A DNA stretch of 64,000 nt from the NCBI RefSeq assembly GCF_003334405.1, contig NZ_QOWM01000010.1; one strand, written 5' to 3'. The stretch is from Escherichia coli (lineage in GTDB: Bacteria; Pseudomonadota; Gammaproteobacteria; Enterobacterales; Enterobacteriaceae). Of this stretch, positions 36,930 to 49,037 are shown piece after piece. Made by a program: the position numbers and the translations under genes. The notes beneath the pieces were generated by a model, which saw only the letters and a list, made by a program, of their open reading frames with translations, did no database searches and was not told the DNA's origin. Every line of letters begins with the position of its first letter. The stretch's first letter is position 1.

Positions 36930-37577
36930 TTATTCGTTAGTGGCAGGATTACGAAGCGTGGGGCACAGGAGATACATCTCCAGTAAGATGGCAACGTAAT
37001 CGCGGGCTTCTTTTTTAAGATCAAAAGATTGCGGGGCAAAGAGCCAGTTTTCCATCAGGCCGGAAATATAGCCGCGCATAATAATTGCTGCGCGACGCGT
37101 CATTAAATCCGCAGGCAACATTTTCGCTTCAATACAATGTTTTAACGTTTGTTCTATACGGTCATAACTTTCCAGACAGAGATTACGTTGTGCCTGTTGC
37201 ACAACAGCCATTTCTCCGACAAATTCGCATTTGTGGAATATAATCTCCATCAATAATCGACGCCGTTCTTCTGTCACCGTGGATTCAAGAACATGAATTA
37301 ATATCTCTCTTAATACTGAGAGTGGATCGCCAGGGAATTTTGCCTGATACTCAAGCTCTAGTTCACCAATATTGGATTCTGACAGTTCCCAGATCTCACT
37401 GAACAAATCCGACTTGTCTTTAAAATGCCAGTAGATTGCACCGCGCGTAACGCCAGCTGCTTTTGCAATCTCGCCCAGCGAGGTGGATGATACCCCCTGC
37501 TGTGAGAAAAGACGTAGAGCCACATCGAGGATGTGTTGGCGCGTTTCTTGCGCTTCTTGTTTGGTTTTTCGTGCCAT
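36930..37577 (-). CDS. acrR: TetR-family repressor of acrAB, 215 aa
   Basis: ORF track 215 aa; N-terminal TetR helix-turn-helix ([25 protein letters not shown]). Confidence 0.96.
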
Positions 37578-44086: not shown

Positions 44087-44557
44087 ATGACCGAAATACA
44101 ACGCCTGCTGACCGAAACGATTGAGTCTCTGAATACCCGCGAAAAACGCGACAACAAACCCCGCTTTAGTATCAGTTTTATCCGTAAACATCCGGGGCTG
44201 TTTATCGGTATGTACGTTGCTTTTTTTGCCACCCTGGCGGTGATGTTGCAGTCCGAAACGCTGTCAGGCTCTGTCTGGCTACTGGTTGTATTATTTATCC
44301 TGCTTAATGGTTTCTTCTTTTTCGATGTCTACCCACGCTACCGCTATGAAGATATCGACGTGCTGGATTTCCGCGTTTGCTATAACGGCGAATGGTACAA
44401 CACGCGCTTTGTACCTGCCGCGCTGGTTGAAGCCATCTTGAACTCTCCGCGTGTCGCGGATGTTCATAAGGAACAACTGCAAAAAATGATCGTCCGTAAA
44501 GGTGAACTGTCTTTTTACGATATTTTTACCCTCGCTCGCGCCGAATCAACATCTTAA
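44087..44557 (+). CDS. ylaC: Uncharacterised inner membrane protein, 156 aa
   Basis: ORF track 44048..44557; trimmed to the ATG at 44087 ([16 protein letters not shown]...). Two hydrophobic helices. Confidence 0.85.
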
Positions 44558-44714
44558 GTTAGGGTTACATACCAGGCGTAAAGCTCTGCGCCTGGTCAAA
44601 TGACAATGATCGTTTCCACCCATCACTTCATGAAATACCAGCTCTACCTCCTTATCTCCAGCCAGCCTTTTTCCACAATCAGATATACTTTCCCTACACT
44701 GTGTTAATAAGGAT

Positions 44715-46271
44715 ATGCTGGTGAGAACACGACATCTGGTCGGCCTTATTTCGGGAGTACTGATTCTTTCAGTATTGCTGCCTGTCGGCTTAAGCATCTG
44801 GCTGGCCCATCAGCAGGTAGAAACATCGTTTATTGAAGAGCTGGATACCTATTCCTCCCGCGTCGCTATTCGAGCCAATAAGGTGGCGACACAAGGGAAA
44901 GATGCGCTGCAGGAGCTGGAAAGATGGCAAGGCGCTGCCTGTAGCGAAGCCCATCTCATGGAAATGCGTCGGGTATCTTACAGTTATCGCTATATTCAGG
45001 AAGTGGCTTATATCGATAACAACGTTCCCCAGTGTTCGTCTCTGGAGCATGAAAGTCCGCCCGATACCTTCCCCGAGCCAGGTAAAATTTCGAAAGATGG
45101 TTATCGTGTCTGGTTAACATCGCATAACGATTTAGGCATTATCCGTTACATGGTCGCCATGGGAACGGCACATTATGTCGTCATGATCGACCCCGCTTCC
45201 TTTATTGATGTCATTCCCTATAGCTCATGGCAAATTGATGCCGCCATTATTGGCAATGCCCATAACGTTGTCATAACCAGCAGCGATGAAATTGCTCAGG
45301 GAATTATTACCAGGCTACAAAAAACACCCGGTGAGCATATCGAAAATAATGGAATCATTTACGATATCCTGCCCTTACCGGAGATGAATATTTCGATCAT
45401 CACATGGGCTTCAACGAAAATGTTGCAGAAAGGCTGGCATCGGCAAGTCTTTATTTGGTTACCGCTCGGGTTGGTGATTGGCCTGCTGGCAGCGATGTTT
45501 GTGCTGCGTATTTTGCGCCGTATTCAGTCACCGCATCATCGGCTGCAGGATGCTATCGAAAATCGTGATATTTGCGTGCACTATCAGCCGATTGTCTCCT
45601 TAGCCAATGGCAAAATTGTCGGTGCTGAGGCACTGGCGCGCTGGCCGCAGACAGACGGTAGTTGGTTGTCACCAGATAGTTTTATTCCGCTGGCACAGCA
45701 AACGGGCCTTTCTGAGCCATTGACGCTACTGATTATAAGAAGCGTCTTTGAAGATATGGGCGACTGGCTGCGTCAGCATCCACAGCAGCATATTTCGATC
45801 AATCTTGAATCCCCCGTGCTCACCTCGGAAAAAATCCCGCAATTGCTGCGTGACATGATCAATCACTATCAGGTTAATCCCAGACAGATCGCGCTTGAAC
45901 TCACTGAACGCGAGTTTGCCGATCCGAAAACCAGCGCCCCGATAATTTCTCGCTACCGGGAGGCGGGCCATGAAATTTATCTTGATGATTTTGGTACGGG
46001 GTATTCAAGTTTAAGTTATTTACAGGATCTGGATGTCGACATTCTGAAGATCGATAAATCTTTCGTTGATGCGCTGGAATATAAAAATGTCACGCCGCAT
46101 ATCATCGAAATGGCAAAAACACTGAAACTGAAAATGGTAGCGGAGGGAATCGAAACCAGTAAACAAGAAGAGTGGTTACGCCAGCATGGCGTGCACTACG
46201 GTCAGGGCTGGCTCTACAGCAAGGCATTACCGAAAGAAGATTTCTTACGCTGGGCCGAGCAACATTTGTGA
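44715..46271 (+). CDS. pdeB: CSS-motif sensor domain / EAL-domain c-di-GMP phosphodiesterase, about 516-518 aa
   Basis: ORF track 518 aa; N-terminal TM, periplasmic sensor segment with conserved cysteines, second TM and a C-terminal EAL domain (EALARWP ... DDFGTGYSSLSYL). The exact start codon is uncertain by a couple of codons. Confidence 0.88.
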   Translation: MLVRTRHLVGLISGVLILSVLLPVGLSIWLAHQQVETSFIEELDTYSSRVAIRANKVATQGKDALQELERWQGAACSEAHLMEMRRVSYSYRYIQEVAYIDNNVPQCSSLEHESPPDTFPEPGKISKDGYRVWLTSHNDLGIIRYMVAMGTAHYVVMIDPASFIDVIPYSSWQIDAAIIGNAHNVVITSSDEIAQGIITRLQKTPGEHIENNGIIYDILPLPEMNISIITWASTKMLQKGWHRQVFIWLPLGLVIGLLAAMFVLRILRRIQSPHHRLQDAIENRDICVHYQPIVSLANGKIVGAEALARWPQTDGSWLSPDSFIPLAQQTGLSEPLTLLIIRSVFEDMGDWLRQHPQQHISINLESPVLTSEKIPQLLRDMINHYQVNPRQIALELTEREFADPKTSAPIISRYREAGHEIYLDDFGTGYSSLSYLQDLDVDILKIDKSFVDALEYKNVTPHIIEMAKTLKLKMVAEGIETSKQEEWLRQHGVHYGQGWLYSKALPKEDFLRWAEQHL

Positions 46272-46312
46272 ATTTTTGGGCTGACGGCACGCCGCACAGC
46301 CCGTCACGCTAC

Positions 46313-46666
46313 CTATTCGTCGATGATTGACTCGAATCCGCCATAGATCATTCGCTTGCCGTCAAACGGCATGGACTCGCCGAACTCTTTCATCCGTGGG
46401 TCCGACATCATCTTTTGATTAGCAGCGTCGCGGACCTCTTTTGAAGGGTATTCAATCCAGCTAAAGACAACCTCTTCATTCTCTTCCGCTTTCACCGCCA
46501 TACGAAAATCGGTCACTTTGCCATCCGGTACATCGCTGGCCCAGCATTCGACAATACGAAGCGCGCCAAACTCTTTAAACAATGGCGCAGCCTTAGCGGC
46601 CATTTCCCGATAGGCATCCTTTTTATCGGCAGGAACGGCAACCACAAAACCATCAACATACTTCAT
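46313..46666 (-). CDS. ybaA: DUF1428-family protein, 117 aa
   Basis: ORF track 117 aa. Confidence 0.88.
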   Translation of the reverse strand: MKYVDGFVVAVPADKKDAYREMAAKAAPLFKEFGALRIVECWASDVPDGKVTDFRMAVKAEENEEVVFSWIEYPSKEVRDAANQKMMSDPRMKEFGESMPFDGKRMIYGGFESIIDE

Positions 46667-46776
46667 CAGACATACCTCCGAAGCGTACTGCGCAGCCAGA
46701 CAATTCTTGCGACGTCAGTTGTGGTTAAAGTTTAGCCATGTTGGGATTTTTTGACGAAACGGTGGGAGGCAGAAAT

Positions 46777-46890
46777 GGGTGGGGGCCCTGCCAGCTACAT
46801 CCCGGCACACGCGTCATCTGCCTTGGCTGCTTCCTTCCGGACCTGACCTGGTAAACAGAGTAGCGTTGCGGGAGAACCAACAGAGCCCCC
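46777..46890 (-). ncRNA. ffs: 4.5S RNA, the signal recognition particle RNA (114 nt)
   Basis: Reverse complement of 46777..46890 matches, base for base, the 4.5S RNA sequence as I recall it (GGGGGCTCTGTTGGTTCTCCCGCAACGC...GGCAGGGCCCCCACCC), including the conserved domain IV GGAA tetraloop region. ORF-track entries overlapping it are spurious. Confidence 0.95.
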
Positions 46891-46966
46891 ATTGAGAGCG
46901 TTGAGAACCAACGCGCAGGCGCATTATCACTGCTGCCCCGGCTAATTGCAACCCATCGCGTGCCAG

Positions 46967-47356
46967 ATGCTGGTTTCTTGCGCAATGCGACTTCACTCGG
47001 GCGTTTTTCCAGATTATGCTGAAAAATTACCTCAGGAAGAAAAGATGGAAAAAGAAGATTCATTTCCCCAACGCGTCTGGCAAATCGTCGCCGCTATTCC
47101 CGAAGGCTATGTCACCACTTACGGTGATGTGGCGAAACTGGCGGGATCGCCCCGCGCCGCGCGCCAGGTGGGCGGTGTGTTAAAGCGTCTCCCTGAAGGC
47201 AGCACCTTACCCTGGCACCGGGTGGTTAATCGCCACGGCACAATTTCGCTAACCGGACCGGATTTACAGCGTCAGCGACAGGCATTACTGGCAGAAGGTG
47301 TGATGGTATCGGGAAGCGGGCAAATCGACTTGCAGCGTTATCGCTGGAACTACTAA
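46967..47356 (+). CDS. atl: Alkyltransferase-like protein (ATL; O6-alkylguanine DNA-binding, non-catalytic), 129 aa
   Basis: ORF track 46946..47356; start set at the ATG at 46967 (MLVSCAMRL...). Methyltransferase-like DNA-binding fold lacking the catalytic cysteine context (PWHRVVN). Start is uncertain. Confidence 0.82.
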   Translation: MLVSCAMRLHSGVFPDYAEKLPQEEKMEKEDSFPQRVWQIVAAIPEGYVTTYGDVAKLAGSPRAARQVGGVLKRLPEGSTLPWHRVVNRHGTISLTGPDLQRQRQALLAEGVMVSGSGQIDLQRYRWNY

Positions 47357-47386
47357 CCCTCTCCGGGCGGAGAGGGTTAACGTCGC

Positions 47387-47959
47387 TTAATATTGCGTAG
47401 GAGCTGGAACTGCCGAAGACGGATTCACCTGAGTTGGTGAAGTCGAAGGTACGGTAGTCGTTGCGCCACCGCTGGCCTGAACCGGCACGGCGGTTTGCTG
47501 TACCGGCACCAATGTCAGGTCGGCTTTAGTTCCGCCCTGGTTGATCACCGGCTGAACGGTATCGGTGATAAATACCAGTTTGTCATTCACGGTAATCGCC
47601 GCACTCAACAGAATACGCGCGTTCGGCTGAACATCTGCCGGGTTAAATGGCAGAACAAAGCTGAATGGTGACTGTTTACCTTCAGTACGCACCGCTTTCT
47701 GCGCCAGCACTTTTGACGGTGCATCGGCTAACGACGCGTCAGAAAGTGTCACGGTCAGCACAGCATCAGGCGGCAGTGCGACTTTCTGACGGATCCAGAC
47801 GGTACCGGAGACATTCGGTTGCTGGATAGCTGGTTGTTGTGTTGCTGAAATAGACGTATTTGCAGCCGGTGCTGGCGTCTGAATATCCGCGCTTTTATCT
47901 GCGCAAGCCGCCAACGCAATCGCAACCGCTAAACCACTGGCCATGTGCACGAGTTTCAT
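47387..47959 (-). CDS. ybaY: Lipoprotein YbaY, 190 aa
   Basis: ORF track 190 aa; signal peptide with lipobox LAACA and a Pro/Thr/Ala-rich low-complexity C-terminus. Confidence 0.88.
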   Translation of the reverse strand: MKLVHMASGLAVAIALAACADKSADIQTPAPAANTSISATQQPAIQQPNVSGTVWIRQKVALPPDAVLTVTLSDASLADAPSKVLAQKAVRTEGKQSPFSFVLPFNPADVQPNARILLSAAITVNDKLVFITDTVQPVINQGGTKADLTLVPVQQTAVPVQASGGATTTVPSTSPTQVNPSSAVPAPTQY

Positions 47960-48176
47960 TCATTTCTCCTTATTATCAATGCACCAGCGGGCTAACTTTC
48001 CTCGCCGGAAGAGTGGTTAACAAAATAGTAACGTCAACAAGTGTGGCACACATCACGCATTTCTGCCTGTAATTAGCCCGTAATTCAGACCATTGCACCC
48101 ATCGGACCAGTAGCAAATTTGCGTTATACTCAACTCACTTTGGCTTGCTGCGGCAGCTTTGTTACTGGAGAGTTAT

Positions 48177-49037
48177 ATGAGTCAGGCGCTAAAAAATTTA
48201 CTGACATTGTTAAATCTGGAAAAAATTGAGGAAGGACTCTTTCGCGGCCAGAGTGAAGATTTAGGTTTACGCCAGGTGTTTGGCGGCCAGGTCGTGGGTC
48301 AGGCCTTGTATGCTGCAAAAGAGACCGTCCCTGAAGAGCGGCTGGTACATTCGTTTCACAGCTACTTTCTTCGCCCTGGCGATAGTAAGAAGCCGATTAT
48401 TTATGATGTCGAAACGCTGCGTGACGGTAACAGCTTCAGCGCCCGCCGGGTTGCTGCTATTCAAAACGGCAAACCGATTTTTTATATGACTGCCTCTTTC
48501 CAGGCACCAGAAGCGGGTTTCGAACATCAAAAAACAATGCCGTCCGCGCCAGCGCCTGATGGCCTACCTTCGGAAACGCAAATCGCCCAATCGCTGGCGC
48601 ACCTGCTGCCGCCAGTGCTGAAAGATAAATTCATCTGCGATCGTCCGCTGGAAGTCCGTCCGGTGGAGTTTCATAACCCACTGAAAGGTCACGTCGCAGA
48701 ACCACATCGTCAGGTGTGGATCCGCGCAAATGGTAGCGTGCCGGATGACCTGCGCGTTCATCAGTATCTGCTCGGTTACGCTTCTGATCTTAACTTCCTG
48801 CCGGTAGCTCTACAGCCGCACGGCATCGGTTTTCTCGAACCGGGGATTCAGATTGCCACCATTGACCATTCCATGTGGTTCCATCGCCCGTTTAATTTGA
48901 ATGAATGGCTGCTGTATAGCGTGGAGAGCACCTCGGCGTCCAGCGCACGTGGCTTTGTGCGCGGTGAGTTTTATACCCAAGACGGCGTACTGGTTGCCTC
49001 GACCGTTCAGGAAGGGGTGATGCGTAATCACAATTAA
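48177..49037 (+). CDS. tesB: Acyl-CoA thioesterase II, 286 aa
   Basis: ORF track 48159..49037; trimmed to the ATG at 48177 ([30 protein letters not shown]...). Confidence 0.95.

Follow-up and report, generated by a model that had tools for sequence, protein, structure and literature searches.

Three genes of poorly defined function, ylaC, ybaA and ybaY, lie close together around the 4.5S RNA gene ffs of Escherichia coli. Do they form a functional unit, and does the odd C-terminus of the lipoprotein YbaY matter to that protein? The genes occupy positions 44,087 to 47,959 of a 64,000-nucleotide stretch of E. coli DNA (assembly GCF_003334405.1, contig NZ_QOWM01000010.1; hereafter the window). 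An earlier examination of the letters alone, the sequence-only reading, had described them as a cluster and had suggested that the low-complexity end of YbaY could be a flexible linker or an O-glycosylation-like region. Here, we report that purifying selection at the protein level is as strong on the YbaY tail as on the folded domain, and that the three genes are independent transcription units in an ordinary part of the core chromosome.

The YbaY tail is constrained like the folded domain

YbaY is made up of four modules: a lipobox, an N-terminal tether, a beta-sandwich and a 38-residue C-terminal tail (Table 1). By an established rule, Ala at +2 after the lipobox Cys directs a lipoprotein to the outer membrane, and since YbaY has Ala at +2 after Cys19, it is expected to be sorted there. 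The protein matched the YscW family (PF09619, i-Evalue 9.7e-40, model positions 2-107 of 107, residues 46-150). AlphaFold2 (AF2), run with a 49-sequence alignment, returned a confident seven-stranded beta-sandwich for residues 49-152, with a block-mean predicted local distance difference test score (pLDDT) of at least 88 over residues 51-150; as modeled, the fold is clearly of the ExsB/YscW type. Scores were low in the flanks, namely 54-55 for residues 21-40, and 76, 55, 61 and 73 in the four blocks from 151 to 190.

The two flanks differ from each other. Residues 20-48 have the marks of a Lol-sorting linker (29 disordered residues where more than 22 are expected, pLDDT about 54-55, and the highest nonsynonymous divergence in the protein, dN = 0.20), and, being variable in sequence and length, fit the class of disordered N-terminal linkers to which those of RcsF, Pal and NlpD belong. 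The C-terminal tail, by contrast, is unlike these linkers: its length is fixed, its sequence is conserved, and it lies at the opposite end of the protein. YbaY has also been listed among outer-membrane lipoproteins with disordered N-terminal linkers (bioRxiv 10.1101/2021.01.05.425367).

The peptide that first drew attention, TTTVPSTSPTQVNPSSAVPAPTQY, is exactly residues 167-190 (window 47390-47461), and the C-terminus in full reads ...GGATTTVPSTSPTQVNPSSAVPAPTQY. The biased composition of the tail is genuine: of the 38 residues in 153-190, 12 are Ser/Thr, P/T/S/Q/A/V together make up 89%, and not one is charged. The sequence-only reading had proposed the conservation of this tail as a check. 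In a first alignment of 14 genera, the C-terminal 38 residues were nearly invariant while the N-terminal tether was variable. For a quantitative comparison, 80 orthologous Enterobacteriaceae ybaY coding sequences were codon-aligned and compared with the window sequence by the Nei-Gojobori method. The ratio of nonsynonymous to synonymous divergence (dN/dS) was 0.18 in the signal peptide (residues 1-19), 0.082 in the N-linker (20-48), 0.048 in the domain (49-152) and 0.053 in the tail (153-190), and went down to 0.033 in residues 166-190; dN was 0.204 in the N-linker versus 0.075 in 166-190. A tree-aware Fitch count gave ratios of amino-acid to synonymous changes of 0.42 for the linker, 0.19 for the domain, 0.22 for the tail and 0.17 for residues 166-190. 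Nine positions (T173, S174, P175, T176, P180, S181, P185, A186 and P187) showed zero amino-acid changes versus 20-34 synonymous changes each. Residues 166-190 were indistinguishable from the domain and differed from the linker (Mann-Whitney, p = 0.88 and p = 0.027, respectively). Moreover, every internal indel fell in the N-linker, and the length of the tail varied only by an optional terminal Pro. By dN/dS and Fitch counts alike, the tail is thus conserved in the same manner as the folded domain.

The rare YbaY length variants of E. coli have deletions in the domain or the linker, never in the tail. Mostly singletons from E. coli and Salmonella (P0017-P0033, P0101, P0105 and P0109), such rare variants have in-frame deletions of 4-24 residues within the beta-sandwich; they may be loss-of-function alleles or assembly artefacts.

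Could the conservation instead be imposed at the DNA level, where a terminator, an antisense RNA or a second reading frame might overlap the tail codons? The tail codons do adjoin the convergent atl gene and an intergenic hairpin, and a 58-codon plus-strand open reading frame (ORF) overlaps positions 47495-47671. However, synonymous sites in the tail are nearly saturated (proportion of synonymous differences, pS, 0.68-0.71; 21-22 synonymous changes per site) and exceed those in the domain, hence the DNA is free to vary and the constraint acts on the protein. Rfam models found nothing at the tail codons. The synonymous-site data effectively refute a DNA-level cause, to which we attach a negligible probability.

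The tail is also exclusive to YbaY. When just the tail was used as query against 5.8 billion proteins, 12 matches were returned, all of them YbaY fragments, so the tail is no module common to several proteins. Mangrovibacter and Brenneria have an unrelated P-rich sequence in its place, and the tail is absent from YbaY of Photorhabdus (148 aa) and from a Vibrio-like orthologue (P0246, 147 aa). This fixed-length form is therefore confined to the core Enterobacteriaceae.

These patterns bear on a rival view that goes back to the sequence-only reading: the tail as a flexible spacer of a generic kind, or as an O-glycosylated, mucin-like stretch, with composition alone being of consequence. The uncharged, Ser/Thr-rich composition and the low AF2 confidence (pLDDT 55-76) would suit such a view, as would the unrelated tails of similar composition in more distant YbaY orthologues, and a legacy name, 'Glycoprotein-polysaccharide metabolism', still attached to YbaY homologues. 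In composition, the tail does resemble the O-glycosylated, Pro/Thr-rich linkers found in surface proteins and secreted enzymes of bacteria. Those linkers, however, connect a pair of domains and change fast in length and in number of repeats, whereas the YbaY tail forms the end of the protein, does not vary in length and is constrained at individual sites. Regions selected for composition only drift in sequence and length; across the 80 species, the tail showed neither rapid drift nor repeat or length variation, had no indels and nine invariant sites, and its dN/dS equaled that of the folded domain. As a terminus with nothing beyond it, the tail links nothing, and the linker-like part of YbaY is its N-terminal tether. 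For O-glycosylation we found no support: the evolutionary pattern is opposite to that of mucin-like spacers, we found no paper reporting glycosylated YbaY, and E. coli K-12 is not known to have a general periplasmic O-oligosaccharyltransferase system. We consider a composition-only role improbable. In full, the legacy name reads 'Glycoprotein-polysaccharide metabolism (protein)', and the UniRef and NCBI records of P0043, P0114, P0394, P0395 and P0167 still carry it; we found no experimental basis for the name, which may have prompted the glycosylation idea.

Stress regulation and a candidate role for YbaY

Published expression data place ybaY among envelope-stress genes. It is sigmaS- and osmotically induced, with a log2 fold change of 3.7 in 0.3 M NaCl. 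Its expression rose 3.9-fold on RcsB overexpression, where it is listed beside osmB, osmY and the lysozyme inhibitor gene ivy, and 7.6-14-fold under a LolCDE inhibitor, with mliC among the co-induced lipoprotein genes. It has also been reported as an OxyS target. A Reg-Seq preprint describes an osmotic-shock activator footprint that is common to ybaY and yjbJ; the right half of the site resembles an RcsB half-site. Because of this half-site, the RcsB-regulon data and the induction upon LolCDE inhibition, RcsB with a further partner is the obvious candidate for the ybaY/yjbJ activator. When we inspected the ybaY promoter region (47960-48176) by eye for an RcsB half-site, there was no clear match.

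A phenotype comes from Providencia alcalifaciens, in which a transposon mutant of a YbaY-family gene was attenuated in Drosophila and sensitive to polymyxin B, with a normal lipopolysaccharide profile; its virulence was rescued in flies deficient in antimicrobial peptides. The domain family is informative as well. It is widespread (3,451 clusters at 50% identity), frequently occurs in tandem arrays, and among 30 multidomain relatives is fused to MliC (7), Fasciclin (5), META (4) or the NlpE N-domain (3), as well as to LppP/LprE and LysM. All of these fusion partners are envelope modules, several of them linked to defense or stress sensing. A Pfam scan of P0238, sought as an example of an MliC-YscW protein, returned YscW only, and the MliC fusions rest on the count of 7 in 30.

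Collectively, the envelope-stress regulation, the MliC, NlpE and META fusions and the polymyxin phenotype in Providencia point to a role for YbaY in barrier protection. The explanation that we favor, with moderate confidence, is that the locus is an ordinary one of independent genes, and that YbaY is a stress-induced, four-module outer-membrane lipoprotein that contributes to barrier protection and has a docking tail. In this scheme, YbaY, which is induced by envelope and osmotic stress, would be delivered to the outer membrane. The N-terminal tether of ~29 residues would matter by its length and not its sequence, as fits a Lol-sorting linker. The uncharged, proline-punctuated tail would be a short linear motif, extended and of the 'fishing line' (polyproline-II) type, and, judging from its pattern of conservation, is probably a lineage-specific docking motif: it would dock YbaY to a specific envelope partner, and would be neither a passive spacer nor a glycosylation carpet. 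Thus anchored, YbaY may aid the outer-membrane barrier under stresses that induce Rcs or sigmaS, for example osmotic shock, exposure to cationic peptides or faulty lipoprotein trafficking, and would not be a dedicated secretin pilotin.

A more specific version can be put forward only tentatively. The invariant tail, GGAxTTVPSTSPTQVxPSSAxPAPTQ[Y/F], might be an Enterobacteriaceae-specific motif that tethers YbaY to a defined partner, for example the lumen of a porin, a component of BAM or Lpt, or a protein associated with peptidoglycan. YbaY could then be an adaptor, induced by stress, through which the outer-membrane barrier is strengthened against cationic peptides and lysozyme. A related possibility, by analogy with RcsF and its N-terminal linker, is that the tail threads or contacts an outer-membrane beta-barrel such that part of YbaY is exposed at the surface, YbaY being a sensor or a surface shield. 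At ~3 A per residue, an uncharged extended tail would reach roughly 110 A, and a lineage-restricted partner, for example enterobacterial porins, would explain why tail conservation is lineage-restricted; YbaY is also listed with RcsF and Pal among outer-membrane lipoproteins with long disordered segments (bioRxiv 10.1101/2021.01.05.425367). RcsF, however, threads its N-terminal and not its C-terminal segment, and we found no surface-exposure data for YbaY. Barrel threading thus seems to us an outside chance.

Several points weigh against a docking tail in a barrier-protecting lipoprotein. Conservation was measured within one family, in which whole YbaY proteins are 78-94% identical. Although genuine, the contrast between tail and N-linker has modest statistical strength (p = 0.027 when residues 166-190 are compared, p = 0.12 when the tail is taken as a whole), and the AF2 tail scores of only 55-76 carry no docking information. 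The only ybaY phenotype is from Providencia and cannot be credited to the tail, as tail-less orthologues exist (Photorhabdus, 148 aa), and a Salmonella ybaY deletion had no biofilm phenotype. Lastly, the closest solved structure, PDB 5WEC from Vibrio cholerae, was titled by its depositors 'alternative pilotin from the type II secretion system'.

This last point raises the main rival explanation, which rests on fold and names only: YbaY would be a secretin pilotin of the YscW/ExsB class that binds the C-terminal region of a secretin (GspD or HofQ; EpsD in Vibrio) and accompanies it along the Lol pathway as far as the outer membrane, with the tail as all or part of the binding element. The strong YscW match of YbaY fits such a function. 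In addition, a protein with 69% identity to 5WEC is encoded at the same tesB<>ybaY><atl position (divergent from tesB, convergent with atl), and hence 5WEC is most likely the Vibrio orthologue of YbaY. The Vibrio-like orthologue is nonetheless only 147 aa long and has no long C-terminal tail, so that the tail is not a general pilotin element, and the pilotin role of 5WEC rests on its PDB title; in the literature library searched, full-text queries with 5WEC and 'alternative pilotin' turned up no paper that describes the structure. The type III secretion pilotins YscW (Yersinia) and ExsB (Pseudomonas, PDB 2YJL) share only 15% identity with YbaY. They are encoded inside type III secretion loci and act on their cognate secretins, whereas ybaY keeps to a single housekeeping site in all of the Enterobacteriaceae genomes sampled, and its sigmaS, osmotic and Rcs regulation is unlike that of a secretion system. 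To survey the surroundings, we took 80 loci from different Enterobacteriaceae species and located the E. coli neighbors in their 6-kb flanks by tblastn or blastn. No secretin or secretion-system gene was found within these flanks, and none is annotated in positions 1-50,000 of the window. Given how widespread the YscW-type domain is, and its occurrence in tandem and fused to MliC, META, NlpE or Fasciclin, pilotin function is at most one specialized use of it. We therefore judge the pilotin explanation unlikely.

The locus and its neighborhood

The interval is ordinary E. coli core chromosome with the order acrAB-tomB-hha-maa-ylaC-pdeB-ybaA-ffs-atl-ybaY-tesB-amtB. The RefSeq annotation of identical DNA gives maa, ylaC, pdeB, ybaA, ffs, an MGMT-family gene (atl/ybaZ), ybaY, tesB and amtB, and the 3.9-kb segment was matched at 95% identity or more in 5,425 of the 5,426 complete E. 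coli genomes. ORF listing, RefSeq and Rfam give the positions of ylaC, ybaA, ybaY and ffs and bear out the identities assigned in the sequence-only reading, which did not mention pdeB and atl/ybaZ (Table 1).

Table 1. Features of the ylaC-ybaY interval and modules of YbaY (positions in the window).
Feature	Position	Strand	Remarks
ylaC	44087-44557	+	156 aa from ATG; ORF listing and RefSeq annotation of identical E. coli DNA
pdeB (ylaB)	44721-46271	+	membrane cyclic di-GMP phosphodiesterase with EAL domain, between ylaC and ybaA
ybaA	46313-46666	-	117 aa; ORF listing and RefSeq
ffs	46786-46882	-	4.5S signal recognition particle (SRP) RNA; Rfam RF00169 Bacteria_small_SRP, 68.1 bits, E 1e-13
ffs promoter-like site	46951-46923		opposite strand to atl
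atl/ybaZ	47045-47356	+	MGMT-family alkyltransferase-like protein, convergent with ybaY; TIGR00589, 54 bits; RefSeq
G+C hairpin	47357-47376		CCCTCTCC-GGGC-GGAGAGGG; fills the 30 bp that separate the stop codons of convergent atl and ybaY
ybaY	47387-47959	-	190 aa; ORF listing and RefSeq
YbaY C-terminal tail	47390-47503	-	residues 153-190; uncharged, Pro/Thr/Ser/Gln/Ala/Val-rich, predicted non-globular
YbaY folded domain	47504-47815	-	residues 49-152; seven-stranded YscW/ExsB-type beta-sandwich
YbaY N-terminal tether	47816-47902	-	residues 20-48; disordered, fast-evolving, carries all internal indels
YbaY signal peptide and lipobox	47903-47959	-	residues 1-19; LAAC at 16-19, Cys19
tesB<>ybaY control region	47960-48176		divergent, 217 bp; holds the sigmaS/osmotic ybaY promoter and the Reg-Seq activator site (literature)

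The proposed cluster of ylaC, ybaA and ybaY does not stand up. The genes use both strands and are interrupted by pdeB, ffs and atl. In the 80 loci, the order amtB-tesB<>ybaY><atl-ffs was found wherever the contig allows; ybaA, by contrast, was inside the 6-kb flank of ybaY in only 28 loci and ylaC in 15, and in half of the sample (40 loci) none of ybaA, pdeB, ylaC and maa was at the locus. Given the differing strands, the intervening genes and the inconstancy of ybaA and ylaC near ybaY, the three genes are neither an operon nor a functional cluster or system but independent transcription units: a chance neighborhood of y-genes around a conserved tesB-ybaY-atl-ffs core, the only part that is syntenic over the 80 species. 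About a third of E. coli genes have no firm function, so three y-genes in 3.9 kb are unexceptional.

The arrangement tesB<>ybaY><atl is the oldest part of the neighborhood. It also occurs in the Vibrio-like genome that encodes the YbaY homologue 69% identical to 5WEC, and in GCA_000307305, there along with mdlB-glnK-amtB; the loci beyond Enterobacteriaceae are L083 (4844-6803), L084 (2900-4796) and L087 (2886-4447). In Photorhabdus, tesB<>ybaY is followed directly by hha...acrB. The tesB<>ybaY pair (window 47387-49037), in which an acyl-CoA thioesterase gene is joined with a lipoprotein gene, usually with convergent atl, has thus been kept well beyond Enterobacteriaceae and shares one control region.

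The hairpin between atl and ybaY is probably a bidirectional terminator. Its stem is a perfect 8-bp G+C helix, and a T-run is present on neither side, which explains why a simple T-run-dependent terminator scan did not call it. At the other end of atl, the start codon can be placed differently: RefSeq starts the gene at 47045 (103 aa), and the open frame reaches upstream to a TTG at 46946 (136 aa). A 129-aa form from older annotation also fits within the open frame from 46946. Longer forms would overlap the promoter-like hexamers of ffs on the opposite strand. Elsewhere in the window, acrR (36931-37577) is intact and encodes 215 aa; in the closest reference strain, M217, it is annotated as frameshifted.

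YlaC, YbaA and what the locus means

The domain calls made from the letters alone hold for all three proteins: a DUF1428 match in YbaA, two hydrophobic segments in YlaC and a lipobox in YbaY. As to function, it is correct that none of the three has an established biochemical role; published characterization nevertheless exists for each of them, which the sequence-only reading was not aware of. They are already catalogued genes at a known locus, whose biochemical functions have no firm assignment.

YlaC is a two-transmembrane inner-membrane protein with both ends in the cytoplasm. It belongs to PF10777 (E 1.5e-70, model positions 1-153 of 154), has hydrophobic segments at ~36-55 and 60-84 (hydropathy scan and AF2 helices), and its gene has a GAAGG ribosome-binding site 8 nt ahead of the ATG. 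The AF2 model, made from a shallow alignment, shows an N-terminal helix and two transmembrane helices, with three further helices that form a small domain at the C-terminus (pLDDT 70, predicted template modeling score 0.47). Foldseek against the PDB gave no match at E below 2, and we drew no fold-based inference; a PDB sequence search returned Nad1-type noise only (E about 2). An NCBIfam hit to NuoH (19.8 bits vs a cutoff of 531) was rejected, as it is far below threshold and reflects hydrophobic similarity only. YlaC has 591 detectable relatives, and among the 120 matches listed, most of those with a source name are from Enterobacteriaceae. A ylaC knockout has been reported to lower the boric-acid minimal inhibitory concentration (MIC) from 100 to 80 mM, a complementable but weak and non-mechanistic phenotype. 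We noted that the Citrobacter rodentium homologue (P0340) is named 'Extracytoplasmic function sigma factor YlaC' by JGI, a name collision with Bacillus subtilis sigma-YlaC and not homology.

YbaA is a small cytoplasmic alpha+beta-barrel ligand-binding protein. It matches DUF1428 (PF07237, E 2.6e-48) and is identical across all 117 residues to PDB 2OKQ from Shigella flexneri, a DUF1428 alpha+beta barrel (E 1.1e-75); NCBIfam gave no model for YbaA or YbaY. A 2025 preprint describes YbaA as a direct binder of ciprofloxacin in live cells, with a Kd of 1.0 uM by surface plasmon resonance and a crosslink at Glu40 in the central pocket, although neither the ciprofloxacin MIC nor SOS induction was affected in a knockout. 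The same preprint points out that, owing to a position beside ffs, many proteins with DUF1428 carry the mistaken annotation '4.5S RNA SRP'.

As a genome feature, the locus is of small importance, and the gain is a sharper hypothesis for one protein of the y-ome. What is new is that the 'low-complexity' tail of YbaY is constrained, fixed in length and specific to Enterobacteriaceae; the genes and the locus were already known. The tail can now be regarded as a conserved functional element in which T173-Q177 and P185-T188 offer targets for mutation. To our knowledge, C-terminal disordered tails of lipoproteins have been little studied as interaction modules. If confirmed, the docking role would extend functional disordered segments of lipoproteins from N-terminal linkers to C-terminal tails, and would provide a role for a lipoprotein that is present in every Enterobacteriaceae genome sampled.

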